IMG/VR virus record: IMGVR_UViG_3300037067_019009
Coordinates: 96,001-160,000 of that record
Direction: 5' to 3' (one strand)
Length of the DNA: 64,000 nucleotides
DNA from: a virus
Taxonomy: Duplodnaviria > Caudoviricetes
The notes under the pieces: model-generated
The model's input: only the letters and a program-made list of their open reading frames with translations
What the model was told of the DNA's origin: nothing
Databases searched by the model: none
Translations under genes and position numbers: made by a program
Part shown: in pieces, positions 4,855 through 19,000 of the stretch
Position numbering within the stretch: the first letter of the stretch is position 1
Layout: every line of letters begins with the position of its first letter

Positions 4855-6519
4855 CTACTGTTTCATTGATAATTTATACAGTCTATTAGCCTGAATGGCC
4901 ATCAACGTATTACCATCGGCTACCAGTTGCATATCGGCGGAAAACGCCGGGTCTGAAAATCTTCTAGTTCCTGTGCTTCCCTTCCTCGAAGAGAATAGCA
5001 CAATGTCGGTTCCTTCTACCATCACTACAGCCACTCCGCTATCGAGTACAGCCATACTTATTCCAGTATAAGTTATATCCTCATGCTTTATAATGTCATA
5101 AGAGGAGTAGTCATTGGAAAACCGGAATATGAACATATCATATACGGATTGTTTTTCTCCAACCACAGCCAGAACTCCACGCTCGAACTTGGCATCAACT
5201 ACCTTATAGCCCTTCAGTTCAGGTATCTTGACATTATAGGTACATCCGGCCTTGGGTAAAATCGTAGCGAACCACATGCCCAAAGCATCTTGCATAGCCA
5301 CTCCATCAAACATAGTAGTAGACTTAGATGTCACGTTAGCAACCATCGTAGCCGCTGGGAATACACTTGGGTACAACTCCTTAAGTTCAATATGGAGTAG
5401 CTTATTACCCTGCTTAACATACACATCACCTCCGTAGCTGAACATATCATCCACATCAAGAATCATGGGTATTTCTCTCGGAGAATCGATGCCTGCCATT
5501 TTCAGCATGTCCTGCTTCCATACAGCCACACGCTTACCGGAGGTTGTCCTGGCTATATGGAAATCCCCGCCCCCAAACACCCTCTTTGCTCCACTATAAG
5601 TACCAGTCGAGGTGATGGCCAAACCACACCTATAGCTTATTATATTAGAGCTATACTCATGCACCAGCTCCATATTAATAAGCCCTGCGGTTACTATAGG
5701 CTTGCTTACAATCGTGGTAAATACGATAGCCTCTATGCCCTCCGGAGGAGGAATACGTTCTCCCCCTTCCAACACCCGCAGGTACCACTGAAAATACCCG
5801 GAAGGTATTACGTCAAATGGTTGACATACTGGCGGAACAGACACATCTTTGTTAAGGACCGATAGATTGGCCAGCATCCTTTCGTCTAAGCCACTTACTC
5901 TCGGATGGCTGCCTTTATAAGGATGTATCCCAGTGAACATCTGAAAGGATACTATCGCAAAAGAAAACCAATCGGTTCCTTCGTTGAATACACCTGGCTT
6001 AGAGTGCCTATCTCGCACACTCTCCATGAGCACAGGAGCCGCGTAATGTGGACACCCGTAAGAATCTACATCTATGAAATAAATGGTATCGAATTTTGAG
6101 CTGACAAGAAAGTTCATCTCATTTAAATCTACAAGGAGTATACTGCAGTCATGAATGCCTTGCACTCCGGTACGCTTGCGATGTACTAGTTTGTTAATTA
6201 TCTCCGGGGTGATACCATGCTTAGTCCTGAAAACTGCAGGAAACAATTTGCAGAGCGGGTAAGAATCCTTGATGTACCGCATAGTGTAGCCGATTGGCTC
6301 ACCACTGCCGCTGAGCAGAATATCTTCCGGCTTGATAACATCCGGGTTAGTAATCCTGGAAAGCTCCCTGATCTTGCCAACAGGAATCATCTTGCTTGGA
6401 TCATGATAGATTTTGTAAGCTTCAAACCCACGGACATATATCGAGCCTTCCCCACCAGTTGCAATAAAGTCATTCTGCGTTAGTGTGACTTTACTTTTAC
6501 CCTGCACGTATACATCCAT
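4855..6519 (-). CDS. Ser/Thr protein kinase of TerY-P triad type
   Basis: GGEGSIY glycine loop, KIY lysine, DLNEMNFLV catalytic loop, IDVDS, DWFSFA, GIHPY. Confidence 0.85.
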   Translation of the reverse strand: MDVYVQGKSKVTLTQNDFIATGGEGSIYVRGFEAYKIYHDPSKMIPVGKIRELSRITNPDVIKPEDILLSGSGEPIGYTMRYIKDSYPLCKLFPAVFRTKHGITPEIINKLVHRKRTGVQGIHDCSILLVDLNEMNFLVSSKFDTIYFIDVDSYGCPHYAAPVLMESVRDRHSKPGVFNEGTDWFSFAIVSFQMFTGIHPYKGSHPRVSGLDERMLANLSVLNKDVSVPPVCQPFDVIPSGYFQWYLRVLEGGERIPPPEGIEAIVFTTIVSKPIVTAGLINMELVHEYSSNIISYRCGLAITSTGTYSGAKRVFGGGDFHIARTTSGKRVAVWKQDMLKMAGIDSPREIPMILDVDDMFSYGGDVYVKQGNKLLHIELKELYPSVFPAATMVANVTSKSTTMFDGVAMQDALGMWFATILPKAGCTYNVKIPELKGYKVVDAKFERGVLAVVGEKQSVYDMFIFRFSNDYSSYDIIKHEDITYTGISMAVLDSGVAVVMVEGTDIVLFSSRKGSTGTRRFSDPAFSADMQLVADGNTLMAIQANRLYKLSMKQ

Positions 6520-8471: not shown

Positions 8472-10142
8472 TTATATGTTTCCCAAAGCGAATTGGGAAA
8501 TAAGATTTGGAGTAGCGGTATCAAACCCCACCAAATCTAGCATCCCAGAGTCATCCGGGTCTGCGATAGAGAACCCATTGCTTACCATCCCTACCACTAC
8601 GGATCTGGCGTTAGGGTTGATCTTCTTCCGGTACTCAGCGAGAGCCTGGGTGGGATGAATCTTTCCAGCCCAAGTCTCGCTATCCGTGTACACAACGAAT
8701 AAATCTATATTTAGATTGTTCTTTAATGCGTATAAAATAGGCAAAGAGCAATCTGTGCCACCGGCATCCAGTCCCTCTATATATTGGCATACGTCGCTTA
8801 TCCGTTGCTTACTACTGATATCAAGAGCAGAGACACTAGGAATACGACGATTAGTAGAGTCGGCTGTAAAACCTGTCACGACGACGTTCTTCTCAACAGC
8901 CTGGGTAACTAAAGCCATCGCAGCAGAACCAACTCTTGGAGTCAGTCCTGGGCAACCAGCAATGTTCACCCAAGTCATCGACGCAGATAAATCAAGAGCC
9001 AGCATTATATTTTTTCCGGTTGGCTCAACGTTTCCAAATGCAGTGTAGAATGCTCTATTGAGCGCGTCCACTACCTGTGTTACTGGCGTCCAGCTCCCAC
9101 TGCCCCTTACTCCCATCCCTGATCCGTATGTCAGAAGCGCCTTGAGTACATCTATAGGATGGACTCTACTCTTCCTGATCATCTCAACATCTGATAGCTT
9201 ATCTACCACGAAGTTGATAATGTCGAACTTCCCTGGAGCTAATAACCCACTCTTACTAAAGTTGCCCAGGTTCCTGAGTATTGCATGAAAAGGCATCTCC
9301 TGCAACAACTCCAGCTGCACATCCGGATCGCTCTTGAACTGAGAAGGTATGCACTCATGTGGAAGATTATAATCCTTAATTAAAGATATTATACCTTTCT
9401 TCCCGTCTTCAGTTTTAGCTTGCTCGAACGCGTAAATTATCTTAGCTGGAGTACCAGCAAACGTTTTTGCATCCAAGCCCTCGCGCACAACCCCGCGCTT
9501 CTTGTCTTCCCATCCATTAGTGCCATGTGTACACCACTGAAGGATGTTAGAGAAGAGATCGGAGTCCGCTTTAACATGAGATAGCCTGAGCAAATCTCTA
9601 TGGCTCCACCCATCACGCTGCTGGTACTTAGTAACTTGCAGTGACAAGGCACCGGCCGACTTACCTAAGTACCAATCCGCAACAGCGTTCTTCAGTAGGC
9701 GCCCCCATCCGCGAAGGTTAGTAACGTATTCAGCGAAGTGGAATAAGTGAGTTCCGATCCTGCAGACTTGGGGCAAAGCCGCAGCAGCTGCTTTCTTTGT
9801 TTCCACATCTCCAAAACTCATACACGCGGCGAGGGCGAAGATACAAGGGTCATTCTTTGGCGCTCGTCCAGCCTGAGAGATATCGACTATCTCTTTAACC
9901 AACTCGACGCCACTTGCCCTAATTACATTCTCCATAGCAGCAAAACTCTTCAGAGTCATATCTTTCTCTGTAGCATAATAGCTGCCACCCTCAGTGCCGA
10001 GGATCAAGAACCTCTTCACCTTCATCCACTCACTCACTTCGAATGAGTATCCCCCTGCCTGATTCTCCACCATCGACTTACCTGGAATAGGCTGGGTTTG
10101 CGGAGTTTTCTTTACAGACACATGCTTACTGTAGTTAGTCAT
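8472..10142 (-). CDS. rsr: Ro60/Rsr TROVE-domain RNA-binding protein with C-terminal vWA domain
   Basis: NQAGGYSF, RFLILGTEGGSYY, VCRIGTHLFHF, GWGR, KYQQRDGWSHRDLLRLSH, MIDAS DLSASM, GGTDCSLP, YTDSETW, GFD motifs. Confidence 0.95.
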   Translation of the reverse strand: MTNYSKHVSVKKTPQTQPIPGKSMVENQAGGYSFEVSEWMKVKRFLILGTEGGSYYATEKDMTLKSFAAMENVIRASGVELVKEIVDISQAGRAPKNDPCIFALAACMSFGDVETKKAAAAALPQVCRIGTHLFHFAEYVTNLRGWGRLLKNAVADWYLGKSAGALSLQVTKYQQRDGWSHRDLLRLSHVKADSDLFSNILQWCTHGTNGWEDKKRGVVREGLDAKTFAGTPAKIIYAFEQAKTEDGKKGIISLIKDYNLPHECIPSQFKSDPDVQLELLQEMPFHAILRNLGNFSKSGLLAPGKFDIINFVVDKLSDVEMIRKSRVHPIDVLKALLTYGSGMGVRGSGSWTPVTQVVDALNRAFYTAFGNVEPTGKNIMLALDLSASMTWVNIAGCPGLTPRVGSAAMALVTQAVEKNVVVTGFTADSTNRRIPSVSALDISSKQRISDVCQYIEGLDAGGTDCSLPILYALKNNLNIDLFVVYTDSETWAGKIHPTQALAEYRKKINPNARSVVVGMVSNGFSIADPDDSGMLDLVGFDTATPNLISQFALGNI

Positions 10143-10188
10143 TTGCTTTTGGTTCCTCTGGTCCTAGTCAGGACAAATCATTTGTAGT

Positions 10189-10325
10189 TGGGTGGTGGTG
10201 GGACTCGAACCCACACGTCCTTTCGGACAGCTGTTGCTGATAACCCTAACTGTCGGCTCTTAATAGAGAGCTAGTATTCGCTAGGATGTATATACGGCCG
10301 CGTCTGCCATTACGCCACACCACCC
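10189..10325 (-). ncRNA. tRNA-Leu-like body carrying a circularly permuted Y-RNA (Ro-binding) module in place of the anticodon loop
   Basis: Acceptor GGTGGTG/CACCACC, D arm GCG-TAATGGCAGA-CGC, long variable arm GTCC-GAAA-GGAC, T arm GTGGG-TTCGAGT-CCCAC; 59-nt insert (10235-10293) with CCTAGC..GCTCT-CTATTA-AGAGCCGA..GTTAGG-GTTATC. Confidence 0.8.
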
Positions 10326-10350
10326 GTATTTGAAACACGGATACATATAG

Positions 10351-10426
10351 AATATGCTGAGCAAGTAAGATAGCTATGGGGGTGATCATTGGCAGTGATA
10401 ACCATAGCCAATCGGCTCAGCATATT
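10351..10426 (-). ncRNA. Y RNA-like (copy 3 in transcription order)
   Basis: Lower stem GCTGAGC-(bulged C)-GA / TTGCTCAGC, upper stem TGGCTATGG/CCATAGCTA, GGTTATC motif. Confidence 0.85.
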
Positions 10427-10437
10427 ACTAATAGTTC

Positions 10438-10500
10438 TGCCGGACAAGTAGATTGGTGACGATGTTGTCCTTATGATAACCGTCACCATTCGGCCCGGCA
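10438..10500 (-). ncRNA. Y RNA-like (copy 2)
   Basis: Lower stem TGCCGGGC-(C)-GA / TTGTCCGGCA, upper stem TGGTGACGGT/ATCGTCACCA, GGTTATC motif. Confidence 0.85.
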
Positions 10501-10506
10501 CATATC

Positions 10507-10579
10507 TTCCACCGAACAAACAAATTGGTCATGGAGCGATCAGTACAAGTGATAACCATGACCTAACGGCTCGGCGGAA
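10507..10579 (-). ncRNA. Y RNA-like (copy 1)
   Basis: Lower stem TTCCGCCGAGC-(C)-G / TGTTCGGTGGAA, upper stem GGTCATGG/CCATGACC, GGTTATC motif. Confidence 0.8.
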
Positions 10580-10590
10580 CAACCTAAACA

Positions 10591-10619
10591 ATTATATGTT
10601 ATTTATGTTTACTTGTCAA
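10591..10619 (-). promoter_or_regulatory. consensus sigma70 promoter for the Y-RNA array and Ro60
   Basis: TTGACA-17 bp-TATAAT on the minus strand, just upstream of the first Y-like hairpin. Confidence 0.9.
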
Positions 10620-15218: not shown

Positions 15219-15295
15219 TCGGCGGGTAAGGATTTGAACCCCAGTCCTCCTACTAGTACATTACTGTAGACACTCTACCACTGAGCTACCCGCCG
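15219..15295 (-). tRNA. tRNA-like RNA with 12-nt anticodon loop (no assignable anticodon)
   Basis: CGGCGGG/CCCGCCG acceptor, TAGCTCAGTGGTAGAGT D arm, TCTAC-AGTAATGTACTA-GTAGG, TGGGG-TTCAAAT-CCTTA T arm. Confidence 0.75.
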
Positions 15296-15336
15296 GTGTT
15301 TAAACTGCCCCTACTCATATGCTCCCCATAAAACCT

Positions 15337-15615
15337 TCAGCTCTTAACGGCGGCGTAATTTCCCACCTTTACCCAGAAGGGAACCATTTTCCTGAAGCCC
15401 CCAGTTTGAAGCTTGCACGGTATAAACACACAATACGCAGTGCTGCTACTGACTCCGACACTTATGATCTTCGTGCCGGGATATCCAAGCACCATCGTGT
15501 CACTTACTTCAATGATCTTTACAAGCTCGCAGTCTTGCTTAAGTAGCAACCTTCTTATCGCTACTTCTACTTTTGTGATCCACATTGCTAATTTCATTTT
15601 ATTTGTCCTTTTCAT
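15337..15615 (-). CDS. hypothetical protein
   Basis: ORF co-oriented with neighbours. Confidence 0.45.
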   Translation of the reverse strand: MKRTNKMKLAMWITKVEVAIRRLLLKQDCELVKIIEVSDTMVLGYPGTKIISVGVSSSTAYCVFIPCKLQTGGFRKMVPFWVKVGNYAAVKS

Positions 15616-15756
15616 TATAGGCCGTACTTGTCGTAATATGCCCGCAAAAGAAAAACTTATAGTAGACTCCTACCTTCAAATCGATAAACCTTCGTCTTGG
15701 CATAGCACTTCAACCCTTTTTGTAAATCATATCCCTATAGCCTTTACTTAGCTTTC

Positions 15757-15984
15757 CTACTTTAACTTTTCCATGTGTTTATCCGCAATGACTTGAGGAT
15801 AATTACTAGACACGCTTATGGTTCTATTACATACTCCAACTCGGAGTCTGCCTTCTACAAAAGCATCCATGAATGATTTCTCGAATTCGTTCTCGGGTAT
15901 AATATTTATAAAAGCCGCTGTGGGATCAACTAGATTTTGCGAAAAGGTAACTTTCACTATATATTCCTTCTTACTTCTTACCAC
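15757..15984 (-). CDS. hypothetical protein
   Basis: ORF overlapping the upstream ORF, GGAG RBS. Confidence 0.5.
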   Translation of the reverse strand: MVRSKKEYIVKVTFSQNLVDPTAAFINIIPENEFEKSFMDAFVEGRLRVGVCNRTISVSSNYPQVIADKHMEKLK

Positions 15985-16177
15985 TCCAACTTATTTCCCA
16001 CTGAACTTTAAACCAAGTCCAGGGCTTATACCAACAACATCTACCAACTCTCCTAGCAGACACAGCTATAAACCTCGGGGAGGGTACGCCATCCTTCGGG
16101 CAGACTACAGGAACATTACCTCGACTAAAAACCGTCTTACATTGTGGACATTGCTCACAAAACTCGAACTTCCCCAT
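15971..16177 (-). CDS. small Cys-rich hypothetical protein
   Basis: CPQC; C-terminal WYKPWTWF. Confidence 0.5.
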   Translation of the reverse strand: MGKFEFCEQCPQCKTVFSRGNVPVVCPKDGVPSPRFIAVSARRVGRCCWYKPWTWFKVQWEISWSGKK

Positions 16178-16813
16178 GGTTGTGCCCCTCAGCGAGTTAT
16201 ATAATTATACGTACACGCTCTAGTTATAGAATAAGTATTGTAGATTTTGTCCTGCTACACGACATATACAGTGATGTCATCCGAATGCTGCCCCGCTGCT
16301 GCTGGTCGTTGACTACAAAAGTAGTAGGATATCCTCCCACAACTCATCAGCATCTAGTTCCCCTGTGTTCGGTTGACAGGACAAATATAAAGACAAGACA
16401 ACAAGCTATCTTGAAGGATATATTCTCGGGAGTTACATGCAAAGTAAACCCAATCCTCAACATGCTTACCCACAGGGGTGTTTCCATATTGGGAATGTCA
16501 AGATAACTACTCTACCCACAACCTTGCTCTACTGCCTTGCCTATTGATCCACCAGGAGATCATCCCTTGCAGTATCAATCTCTACTACTAGGCTACTAGA
16601 CCATTATTCTGCCACCGCAGAAAAATTAGCAATAAATAGAACAAAGACGACCAGTAGAATCTCACTGGTACCATAGTTTCCATCACAGGCGGTGGTAATA
16701 CAAGCTATAGCGGAGCCAAGGGCTCCTACTAAATCTATAATAGCAACAACTGATTTCATAACATCATACCTTCCATTCATCTAATAGAATAGACTAGCTA
16801 TAAATATAAGCCA

Positions 16814-16906
16814 TCAGCGGGGAAGGACTCGAACCCCCGACCTTGCACATGTTACAGTGCTTTCTCCTTAAATAGGAGTCGCTCTACCAACTGAGCTACC
16901 CGCTGA
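16814..16906 (-). tRNA. tRNA-like RNA with two hairpins in place of the anticodon arm
   Basis: CAGCGGG/CCCGCTG acceptor, TAGCTCAGTTGGTAGAGC D arm, hairpins CTCCT-ATTTA-AGGAG and GCAC-TGTAACAT-GTGC, then AGGTC GGGGG-TTCGAGT-CCTTC T arm. Confidence 0.75.
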
Positions 16907-16936
16907 CGAAACATCAAGTAAGTTATAGGCTTTCCC

Positions 16937-17605
16937 TCAATCCGTGACCTTACACTTTTGGTAAATCCGACGCTGACGCTCTAGGTTTTGCGCAAGATTA
17001 TGCTCTGTAAGACTCGGAATACCAAGAAACTCCCTGACACACTTCCTCTTACAGTCCATACAGTCATGTAGACTCGAAAAGCAGCAGAATTTATCGAAGC
17101 CTCCGGCATATGCGGCAAGCATCGAAGTAAGCATCTCGGCAGCGTCCTCAGGATCAAGAAATTCATATCCTACCGGGAGGCTAATATGCATACGCTGATA
17201 TATAGTCCAGTAATCCTTATTATGTTCCGGATGTGGAATGACATAACTATACCGGAACCAAGGGTCATCGTTTCGCTTATTAACACACTCGGGAATTAAA
17301 GAGATGCATACTTCCGGCATCCAGGAGGATTGTGTAATCACAATGCGCTCAGAATGTGGAACGATATCTATAATATAAAAGAAGCGGTCCTTATCATTAC
17401 CAGCGAATTGAAGTACATACTTCTTACCAGTACTGGCCTGATTAAATTCGCAAACAGCTTCTTTAATAGGAGCAATAAGCTTATCATGCAGAGCTTTCTG
17501 CTGGCTTTGAGCCTCCTCTAATTCCACAACTTTCTGCTTCTCAACACCTTGTATAAAGGACCTGGCCCTGTTTACGATACCAATTACTTCATTCATCTTG
17601 CCCAT
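16937..17605 (-). CDS. hypothetical protein between tRNA-like genes
   Basis: 222-aa ORF, C-terminal Cys cluster. Confidence 0.6.
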   Translation of the reverse strand: MGKMNEVIGIVNRARSFIQGVEKQKVVELEEAQSQQKALHDKLIAPIKEAVCEFNQASTGKKYVLQFAGNDKDRFFYIIDIVPHSERIVITQSSWMPEVCISLIPECVNKRNDDPWFRYSYVIPHPEHNKDYWTIYQRMHISLPVGYEFLDPEDAAEMLTSMLAAYAGGFDKFCCFSSLHDCMDCKRKCVREFLGIPSLTEHNLAQNLERQRRIYQKCKVTD

Positions 17606-17644
17606 GCACTTACCCCACTTGTAGATACGCTCGCAAAAGAAGAT

Positions 17645-17872
17645 TCAGCCGGGTAGGGATTTGAACCCTCGACCTCCCGCACGTAAGTAAGATTACATAG
17701 CTATTAACTTTTTCTCAGGACATGTTGTGCGTTGGCGCCTATGGCACTCAGTACCATGCCGCTTACAAGCAGCATATATTGTCGATACTCGCAAGTTAGT
17801 TATGTTCTCTCTGCTCATGGATGTTAACCCCACATGAACAACAGGCGCTCTGTCCGCTGAGCTACCGGCTGA
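17645..17872 (-). tRNA. tRNA body with 160-nt structured insertion in the anticodon loop (possible intron-containing tRNA-Val(TAC))
   Basis: CAGCCGG/CCGGCTG acceptor, TAGCTCAGCGGACAGAGC D arm, stem CCTGT/GCGGG enclosing 17681-17840, whose 3' end reads CTTACGT; GAGGG-TTCAAAT-CCCT T arm. Confidence 0.75.
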
Positions 17873-17972: not shown

Positions 17973-18227
17973 CTATCTTCTTGTACATCGCCCAATTATG
18001 AAATATAACAATAACATCACTACTATTGCTGGTACCGCTCCAATTATTTGGCCGGGACCATAATAAAAAGGGCCGCTACCACTATCCAATGATCTAGCAG
18101 CTTCCGCATGTTGACGTACCGTACACCCATCTTCAAGTACTACCATAGGATACAGCATAGCACTAAATAACAGACTAACCCCTATAATAATGATAACCAC
18201 AAATGCATGCTCTAGCATTCTATTCAT
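17973..18227 (-). CDS. small 2-TM protein
   Basis: Two hydrophobic helices; start overlaps the upstream stop. Confidence 0.55.
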   Translation of the reverse strand: MNRMLEHAFVVIIIIGVSLLFSAMLYPMVVLEDGCTVRQHAEAARSLDSGSGPFYYGPGQIIGAVPAIVVMLLLYFIIGRCTRR

Positions 18228-18726
18228 TGCATATCCTTACTATTTCCTCAGCAACTTTATCGAAAGCTATCTCTTTCTGTTCCTTCGTTATCATATCGCG
18301 CAGCGTAACGATACCTTTCGCAACTTCATCATCGCCGATGATGAGCACGAACTTGGCTCCGTATTTATCCGCGAGCTTCATCTGCGATTTCAAGCTTCTG
18401 CCGGTAAAATCGGTCTCCGCTGATATATTATTCGCCCACAAATCAAGAAGTAGCGTAACAACAGCCTCTTTAGCACCTTCTCCAACAATCGCAGCATAAA
18501 CACACAACTCCTCATTCGCTAACATCTTAGCACTCGCTGCAAGCTTAGTGCATTCAAGTCCTGCTACCCCGCAGATTATATTTTCCAGATCAGAAGGTTT
18601 CACTTCTCCCTCATAGACATACCTACCAATTATCTCAGCCAATTCTGCCTCTAAGGAATGTCTTACTTCTTTACCTAAGTCGTTATATAACCCAAACTCA
18701 TCAAACAAGGGCTTAAACTCTACCAT
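18220..18726 (-). CDS. protein ending in a HisRS-type (HGTP) anticodon-binding domain; ORF track extends to 18882 but the RBS supports ATG 18726
   Basis: ISAETDFTGRSLKSQMKLADKYGAKFVLIIGDDEVAKGIVTLRDMITKEQKEI is typical of the HisRS C-terminus; no class II catalytic domain; GGAGG before ATG 18726. Confidence 0.8.
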   Translation of the reverse strand: MVEFKPLFDEFGLYNDLGKEVRHSLEAELAEIIGRYVYEGEVKPSDLENIICGVAGLECTKLAASAKMLANEELCVYAAIVGEGAKEAVVTLLLDLWANNISAETDFTGRSLKSQMKLADKYGAKFVLIIGDDEVAKGIVTLRDMITKEQKEIAFDKVAEEIVRICNE

Positions 18727-18802
18727 GGGGCCTCCCACAAGATAGGCTGGTCTAGAGGGTCTATCTAAACCAGCCTCTAACATATAGAAAGCGGATCTTA
18801 GA

Positions 18803-19000
18803 TTAACACAAATACACAGTCCTGGCCGAGACGACCACTTGAACAGTAGTAGTATGCATTCTACTATCTGCTCTTGGGGCAATAGTCATCTGCCGCTGCA
18901 CTGTCGGCGGGGCATTACATGCGAAAGCCACGGCTATTATTATTAGCATAATGGCCAGCAAGACCATCATAGTCGGCTTAAAGAAACTTCTAAACCACAT
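18803..19000 (-). CDS. small membrane or lipoprotein-like peptide
   Basis: Hydrophobic helix ending AFAC; AGGAGG RBS; promoter upstream. Confidence 0.5.
   Translation of the reverse strand: MWFRSFFKPTMMVLLAIMLIIIAVAFACNAPPTVQRQMTIAPRADSRMHTTTVQVVVSARTVYLC

Follow-up and report, generated by a model that had tools for sequence, protein, structure and literature searches.

Three tRNA-Val-like genes with altered anticodon arms, possible non-decoding tRNA mimics, in a large uncultured phage

The window analysed here is a stretch of 64,000 nucleotides (nt), bases 96001-160000 of G000, a whole IMG/VR record of 212,668 bp with an estimated completeness of 84%. Its terminase and portal genes identify G000 as a tailed phage, uncultured and ~213 kb in size, and minus-strand genes extend to ~36 kb of the window. 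Within this minus-strand region are three tRNA-like genes, here called A, B and C, in which a largely intact tRNA body is combined with an anticodon arm that is enlarged, split or interrupted. Their parts are listed below in window coordinates; the cut-off of the Rfam tRNA covariance model (RF00005) is 29 bits, and L-numbers used throughout designate other viral contigs or loci from IMG/VR.

15219..15295, minus strand: tRNA-like gene A, 77 nt (Rfam tRNA, 48.0 bits; ARAGORN; sequence)
15254..15265, minus strand: anticodon 'loop' of A, AGUAAUGUACUA, 12 nt
16814..16905, minus strand: tRNA-like gene B, 92 nt (Rfam tRNA, 47.8 bits)
16863..16879, minus strand: hairpin 1 of B, ACUCC-UAUUUAA-GGAGA, occupying the anticodon-arm position
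16844..16861, minus strand: hairpin 2 of B, (A)GCAC-UGUAACAU-GUGC(A), with an 8-nt loop
17645..17871, minus strand: tRNA-like gene C, 227 nt (ARAGORN in intron mode only; no Rfam tRNA match)
17688..17840, minus strand: insert of C, 153 nt, between CCUGU (positions 27-31) and a complete 7-nt loop
17676..17687, minus strand: that loop of C, CUUACGU (C32, U33, UAC, G37, U38), and the 3' stem strand GCGGG

The three genes share one body plan. Each has C1-G72 and A73 without an encoded CCA, and an acceptor stem paired at 7/7 positions, whose 5' strand reads CGGCGGG in A, CAGCGGG in B and CAGCCGG in C. The D and T arms are normal in A, where the T stem has two G.U pairs, and canonical in B, where the T stem is likewise rich in G.U; the D arm of C is also normal. 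An earlier reading of the window, made without any database search (the sequence-only reading), had ascribed related acceptor stems and canonical D and T arms to all three RNAs, which holds for A and B with their fully paired acceptors and fails at the T arm of C, described below. A, B and C all keep U8, A14, the G15:C48 pair, G18G19, G53, U54U55C56, A58 and C61, and at a paralogue divergence of at least 17% none of the three has lost a universally conserved tRNA position outside the anticodon arm. A and B are most alike, agreeing at 39 of 47 body positions, while the 3' halves of A and C match at 18 of 19 bases. At three stem positions both sides have changed and pairing has been kept: acceptor pair 2:71 is G-C or A-U among the copies, acceptor pair 5:68 is G-C or C-G, and at 49:65 of the T stem A has U-A where B has G-C. 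A, B and C are paralogues. It had also been argued that random decay would not have spared every arm other than the anticodon arm. The bases of the tertiary contacts are indeed intact, but the T arm of C was not spared, and the compensatory changes may date from a stage at which these were working tRNA-Val genes, which weakens the argument.

Apart from the T-arm defect of C, the lesions are confined to the anticodon arm and its immediate surroundings, so that the description of these bodies as non-standard in that arm only is correct with this one exception. As transcribed, none of the three RNAs has a normal anticodon loop (7 nt, with U33 and a purine at 37), and to judge from these loops A, B and C are probably unable to decode in this form. 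Counted from the 3' side, A, hairpin 2 of B and C each present a valine anticodon at the normal distance, with the extra RNA placed 5' of the anticodon and A35-C36 retained.

A, before the variable loop: UG-UAC-UA, GUAGG, AGGAC (positions 34-36, UAC)
B, hairpin 2, before the variable loop: GU-AAC-AU, GUGCA, AGGUC (positions 34-36, AAC)
C, before the variable loop: CU-UAC-GU, GCGGG, AGGUC (positions 34-36, UAC)

These anticodons had been overlooked by the sequence-only reading, and because they stand at the normal 3' distance, an intron-like or insertion-scar reading of the extra RNA stays open. Canonical phage tRNA-Val genes with UAC, AAC or GAC anticodons (L129, L114, L299) resemble the three genes in the variable loop AGGUC and in having UAC or AAC at positions 34-36 from the 3' side, and differ from them in lacking the extra RNA 5' of the anticodon (A, C), the altered loop and added hairpin of B, and the additional T-arm base of C.

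In gene A, the 12-nt anticodon loop that had been noted beforehand was found as described (AGUAAUGUACUA); in an alternative fold, AGUA/UACU extends the stem by 4 bp and leaves a 3-nt loop. The 12 nt can be parsed into AGUAA, which would be the 5 extra nt, and UGUACUA, in which UAC occupies positions 34-36. After removal of AGUAA in silico, ARAGORN called a tRNA-Val(UAC), whose residual loop has G33 and U37. Both halves of A resemble a normal C1-G72/A73 tRNA-Val(UAC) in contig L129.

In gene B, two hairpins do lie between the D and T arms, as had been proposed, but the first of them is an ordinary anticodon arm (5 bp, 7-nt loop) except for A33, and its loop carries UUU. The stem of hairpin 1, A27.A43 mismatch included, equals that of canonical phage tRNA-Val(UAC) genes, for example in L299 (ACUCC-CUUACAU-GGAGA): 10 of 10 stem bases are the same, and 5 of 7 loop bases differ from the L299 gene. 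This correspondence marks hairpin 1 as the true anticodon-arm homologue, with a stem of the tRNA-Val type. Hairpin 2 is a 19-nt addition at the 43/44 junction, exactly between this stem and the variable loop AGGUC, and carries AAC at anticodon distance from the 3' side; its removal in silico gave a 75-nt tRNA call with anticodon UUU. The whole RNA has a fold z-score of -2.7. B was also considered as a class II tRNA with a long variable arm. This was ruled out, as UUU stands at the anticodon position in place of a Leu, Ser or Tyr anticodon, the D arm is of class I type (GCUC/GAGC, 8-nt loop), and the 8-nt loop of the extra hairpin resembles a valine anticodon loop, not a short-looped variable arm. 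The A33 of the first loop of B, in place of the near-universal U33, is also seen in valine-type loops (AAAACAU, AAUACAU) of L183, L329 and L124, the L183 case being a minus-strand gene of 77 nt, a phage tRNA of normal length.

Enlarged anticodon loops are a hallmark of +1 frameshift suppressor tRNAs, and B, through the 8-nt loop of hairpin 2, or A might be supposed to read four-base codons. A genome-wide search for two long frames joined only via a four-base step returned 474 junctions over all quadruplets, on average ~1.9, with 2 for GUUA, 0 for UGUU and 1 for GUAC; none of these three quadruplets is in excess in G000, each lying at the average or under it. The window is densely filled with code-11 reading frames, with a normal gene density and no hint of recoding, and we regard four-base decoding as vanishingly unlikely.

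Gene C has 176 nt between its D and T stems, where 22-23 are normal, and about 160 nt between its anticodon stem strands. There are three candidates for the closing helix, CCUGU/GCGGG, CCUGU/AUAGG and CGCAC/GUGCG, and the length of 153 nt given for the insert assumes that CCUGU/GCGGG is the anticodon stem. The 5' side of the insert's flanks ends in GCGCCUGU and the 3' side begins with CUUACGUGCGGG. When these 153 nt (17840..17688) were removed in silico, ARAGORN called C a tRNA-Val(UAC), and the remaining loop, CUUACGU, is fully canonical. A 160-nt structured insert had been announced at this place; the long interval between the D and T stems is there, but the structure is not. The 176 nt fold at -45.6 kcal/mol against a shuffle mean of -44.5 (z = -0.26), and the whole RNA has a z-score of -0.94, so that the insert folds no better than shuffled sequence and the term 'structured' is unsupported. 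A search for a second copy or repeat of the insert in G000 found none, and the insert is thus unique in the genome, which ruled out a repeated mobile element. The proposal that the tRNA fold carries cargo RNA finds no support in C: the insert lacks a fold signal, matches no Rfam family and occurs only once in the genome. In intron mode ARAGORN itself reads C as a tRNA-Tyr(GUA) that has a long variable arm and a 135-nt intron; this was rejected, since one mismatch and two G.U pairs fall in the anticodon stem so defined and the 'variable arm' is unpaired.

The in-silico excisions invite a rival explanation, in which A, B and C would be unconventional tRNA-Val precursors that decode valine once the extra RNA is removed or tolerated, for instance through protein-dependent cutting and a phage RNA ligase. 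Exact removal yields tRNA-Val(UAC) from both C (153 nt, leaving a canonical loop) and A (5 nt). No ordinary tRNA-Val was found in G000, whose ordinary tRNAs are Pro(UGG), His(GUG) and Asn(GUU), at ~62-64 kb and each with an encoded CCA, and Thr(UGU), within the window. An RNA ligase of the Rnl2 type (PF09414, 57.5 bits) is encoded at G000:56640-57125 on the minus strand, outside the window and near the ordinary tRNA cluster. The sequence-only reading had itself named splicing by a known intron class as an outcome that would overturn it. In the region, no group I intron (RF00028), group II intron, ribozyme or other Rfam family was found at E<=10, nor was there any such match in the look-alike genes of L124, L155, L110 and L200 presented below. 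Group I introns were judged by a model match, a U before the 5' splice site and G as the last intron base; the insert of C follows a U but ends in A. It lies at 31/32, whereas archaeal and eukaryal introns removed by proteins are usually at 37/38. The insert of A, being only 5 nt, is too short for any known intron, and the residual loop of A would still have G33 and U37, while B would require two separate repairs. Neither a tRNA splicing endonuclease (PF01974) nor RtcB (PF01139) was found in G000, at the 84% completeness of the record, and a search of G000 for a CCA-adding enzyme was also negative.

The nearest published description of such genes is that of the 'enigmatic' introns of Lak megaphage tRNA genes, conserved inserts that remain unexplained and whose mechanism is unknown (Devoto et al. 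2019, PMC6784885); their existence lends the precursor explanation some support. Like C, the Lak genes are over-long tRNA genes of large phages that are resolved in intron mode only and whose insert belongs to no Rfam family. In Lak phages the position of the inserts followed from a comparison of alleles that have the insert with alleles that lack it, and the inserts are identical across cohorts, whereas no insert-free allele was found here; also unlike Lak, this phage has three paralogues, each with a lesion of its own (5 nt in A; a changed loop and a 19-nt hairpin in B; 153 nt in C). C fits the Lak-type 'enigmatic intron' as a descriptive category, membership of which says little. With U33 kept in just 4 of 11 insert-bearing relatives, and with inserts that have no common sequence (see below), we consider it unlikely that A, B and C are precursors of decoding tRNA-Val.

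Relatives were sought in IMG/VR with the shared 5' body motif and with the 3' end of B, patterns that do not include the anticodon. Unrelated large phages hold tRNA-like genes with the same C1-G72 body and large inserts. In L124 (202 nt), L155 (244 nt) and L110 (132 nt), an intact 27-31/39-43 stem encloses the insert, which is followed by AAUACAU, GUAACAU and CGAACAU, respectively; since the search patterns omitted the anticodon, these valine-type loops are an unbiased observation. Hits off the valine pattern were L200, with GAA at the anticodon position, L159, L144 and L175. A wider pattern, which required the valine anticodon-side sequence and could therefore detect only inserts on the 5' side, gave a biased sample of 79 unique tRNA-Val-like genes, 11 with inserts and 68 of normal length. 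U33 is present in 4/11 insert-bearing and 63/68 normal-length genes (p = 7e-5), a C1 start in 5/11 and 2/68 (p = 4e-4), and an encoded CCA in 6/11 and 19/68. In one family (L274, L279, L329) a two-hairpin insert has been kept, with one compensatory change from C-G to U-A. The inserts of C, L124, L155, L110, L200, L101 and L175 have no common sequence, nor was any found between families, and none of the 68 normal-length genes is an insert-free counterpart of A, B, C or the look-alikes. RNAs that retain their inserts and serve as tRNA mimics are favoured by the loss of U33, the encoded CCA, the conserved insert structure in one family and the lack of splicing machinery, in broad agreement with the sequence-only reading.

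Several individual genes seen in these searches deserve mention. A C1-G72 tRNA-like gene present on seven contigs (L101 4888-5057 and L158 165-334, also L086, L097, L121, L143 and L182) encodes CCA and has a conserved ~85-nt insert inside the D loop as well as an unusual anticodon loop, AUUUACAU; the record of L101 is 317 kb long, 99% complete and without a TROVE match. L200 1018-1290, from a complete 308-kb phage whose record encodes a TROVE protein, is a 273-nt tRNA-like gene with a T arm and acceptor almost equal to those of B, an insert of ~200 nt ending in AUGAAGA (a Phe-type loop) and an encoded CCA. L110 3359-3490 has two apparent inserts, one of which lengthens the anticodon helix while the other (~26 nt) seemingly splits the 5' strand of the T stem.

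The phage also encodes Ro60, a protein with TROVE and vWA domains, at 8472-10142 on the minus strand, with three Y RNAs and a tRNA-bodied Y hybrid beside or upstream of it (8472-10619).

10189-10325: tRNA-Y hybrid, a Y-RNA module grafted on a tRNA body beside Ro60

The hybrid had been counted as a fourth odd tRNA body of the window, and it is present. A second rival explanation follows from this locus, namely that A, B and C are further RNA partners of Ro60, Y-RNA-like tRNA mimics like the hybrid 5 kb away. Among 80 viral Ro60 loci (L002-L081), many have tRNA bodies with 60-110-nt inserts and GGUUAUC-like motifs directly upstream of Ro60 (e.g. L055 9575-9699, L076 8647-9708, L051 8985-9388, L043 7463-9937); these 80 loci have nothing in common with G000 beyond Ro60. 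YrlA, the nearest mechanistic analogue, copies the acceptor, D and T parts of tRNA without decoding, in bacteria and phages (RF02553; Chen et al. 2014, PMC4201824), and in Mycobacterium smegmatis is cleaved by RNase P and receives CCA (PMC4201824). It binds Ro60 through a helix with the motif GNCGAAN0-1G (PMC4201824). The likeness lies in the non-decoding mimicry of tRNA parts and in the presence of Ro60 and Y RNAs in the same phage; unlike YrlA, A, B and C have free acceptor ends, lack the Ro60-docking motifs of this phage and do not lie beside Ro60. The Rfam YrlA and Y_RNA models miss even this phage's own Y RNAs and were not used as a test. A motif scan with the phage's own Y modules was made instead: its positive controls were GNCG(A/U)(A/U)NG and GGUUAUC, each found three times in the Y array, and GGUUAUC and CAGCAA in the hybrid, and it found no motif in A or B and only a one-mismatch GUUAAC in C. 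Ro60 is 5.1-7.5 kb from A, B and C, with about a dozen reading frames in between, and among 10 further phage records in which tRNA-like genes carry inserts, 9 gave no TROVE match, including two that are 99-100% complete. We find it very unlikely that the three RNAs serve Ro60. In L134 (4769-4890), a tRNA 5' half equal to the first 23 nt of A is followed by ~90 nt of AU-rich RNA; the start of the next reading frame there looks Ro60-like by eye only.

The reading that we prefer, at a probability of about 0.4, is that A, B and C are paralogous descendants of phage tRNA-Val genes that may have been retained as non-decoding, tRNA-shaped mimics. It keeps the tRNA fold from the sequence-only proposal, in line with the paralogy, the intact bodies, the similar genes of other phages and the Y hybrid, in which this phage does combine a tRNA body with another RNA module, and gives up the 'cargo'. 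A, B and C would be transcribed together with the surrounding small genes, from which they are separated by same-strand frame gaps of ~30-100 nt; RNase P and RNase Z would excise them through their tRNA-like acceptor, D and T parts; and a host enzyme would supply the CCA that none of them encodes. The parts of a tRNA that are read by shape- and end-recognising enzymes are retained. The likeliest use of such RNAs would be to bind or titrate a factor that recognises tRNA, such as a host tRNA nuclease, valyl-tRNA synthetase (ValRS) or a phage protein, as decoys. Positions A35, C36 and A73, the identity elements for ValRS, are all retained (in B, A35 and C36 by hairpin 2), which would suggest ValRS or a valine-tRNA-specific nuclease as the target of such a mimic.

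Two kinds of viral tRNA offer a comparison. Phage tRNAs whose anticodon-loop changes evade host tRNA nucleases are reported by van den Berg et al. 2023 (PMC10264068), and a further paper concerns T5 tRNA-Lys and PARIS (PMC11464382). Like A, B and C, the nuclease-evading tRNAs depart from their host counterparts mainly in the anticodon loop; they are of normal length, decode and carry point changes, whereas A, B and C have enlarged or split anticodon arms and are probably non-decoding. The tRNA-like structure of turnip yellow mosaic virus, which accepts valine, has retained a valine anticodon; tRNA enzymes recognise it, while it plays no part in decoding. It forms the 3' end of a plant RNA genome and has a pseudoknotted acceptor; it is a viral tRNA mimic of the valine type without common ancestry or sequence similarity to A, B and C.

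A number of observations weigh against the mimic reading. Exact excision gives C a perfect valine loop, as would be expected of an intron no less than of a mimic. The T arm of C has one extra base between T stem and acceptor (CCCUA-C-CCGGCUG), so that the T loop has 8 nt or a base is bulged, with a G.A or A.A mismatch in addition; this defect stands beside the G.U-rich T stems of A and B and the absence of an encoded CCA from all three genes. The compensatory changes among the copies may predate the disruptions, and the wider survey of other phages was confined, as said, to a biased sample. No relative of G000 divergent enough to show selection on A, B and C was found. L084 and L085, the only copies found elsewhere, match the window at 100% identity; no match of use came from GenBank phages; a metagenome scan with the 3' motif common to A and C returned unrelated sequences only; and IMG/VR searches with the terminase, with a 222-amino-acid (aa) protein encoded between B and C and with a HisRS-like protein encoded upstream of C yielded no relative of this phage. 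The HisRS-like protein had one hit, L001, at 26% identity, and homologues of the 222-aa protein are only 48% identical and lie in unrelated contigs without flanking tRNA-like genes. The perfect tRNA-Val obtained by exact excision from C, the T-arm defect of C and the negative search for divergent relatives of this phage are what hold the mimic reading at about 0.4.

Some of the same evidence would suit dead tRNA-Val genes, in which the anticodon region was a hot spot of insertion or rearrangement and which were then left to neutral decay. The extra base and mismatch in the T arm of C are what decay could leave behind, and C escapes the Rfam tRNA model even when 321 nt are searched; the insert of C has neither fold signal nor homologue, and A, B and C lack the CCA that the phage's Pro, His and Asn tRNAs encode. 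Yet the conserved positions outside the anticodon arm are all intact despite the divergence of the paralogues, and in B the anticodon stem still equals that of a canonical tRNA-Val at 10/10 bases although 5/7 loop bases differ. No nuclease or transposase gene was found adjoining A, B and C, and the same layout recurs in other phages with an encoded CCA and conserved insert structure. Neutral decay appears rather unlikely to us, and retention as mimics is preferred to it.

As to the surroundings, A, B and C lie on the minus strand amid small frames of the same strand. The ~400 nt between A and B at 16180-16600 (minus strand) have no minus-strand frame of at least 60 aa, in an operon that is otherwise dense. 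At 18220-18882 (minus strand), ~350 nt upstream of C with one open reading frame of 84 aa intervening, a gene encodes a stand-alone anticodon-binding domain of the HisRS type (Pfam HGTP_anticodon, E = 1.3e-14), its N-terminal region being without a family match; the protein collection contains only true HisRS as relatives, and gene callers elsewhere begin this gene at an internal ATG, giving 168 aa. On L082, a contig with a 48%-identical homologue of the 222-aa protein, an amber-suppressor CUA tRNA (5540-5615) overlaps a called gene.

Phage tRNA genes are usually taken as codon supplements or as nuclease-resistant spares. If a sizeable share of the valine-type tRNA genes of large phages (11/79, in a biased sample) is deliberately non-decoding and retains only what tRNA enzymes recognise, phage tRNA counts would be inflated and tRNA mimicry by phages would be wider than the known case of Ro60 and Y RNAs. 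If the inserts are removed instead, a new route of RNA splicing would exist in bacteria or phages. A broader proposal, distinctly unlikely as it stands, is that large phages share a so far undescribed class of tRNA-derived RNAs, with a C1-G72/A73 tRNA-Val body and an interchangeable insert 5' of the valine anticodon, which would be independent of Ro60 and, through the retained A35, C36 and A73, may be charged with valine yet not decode. If so, such a valine-charged, non-decoding RNA could act as a sensor, a sponge or a primer, and would be to DNA phages what the tRNA-like ends that accept valine are to plant RNA viruses.

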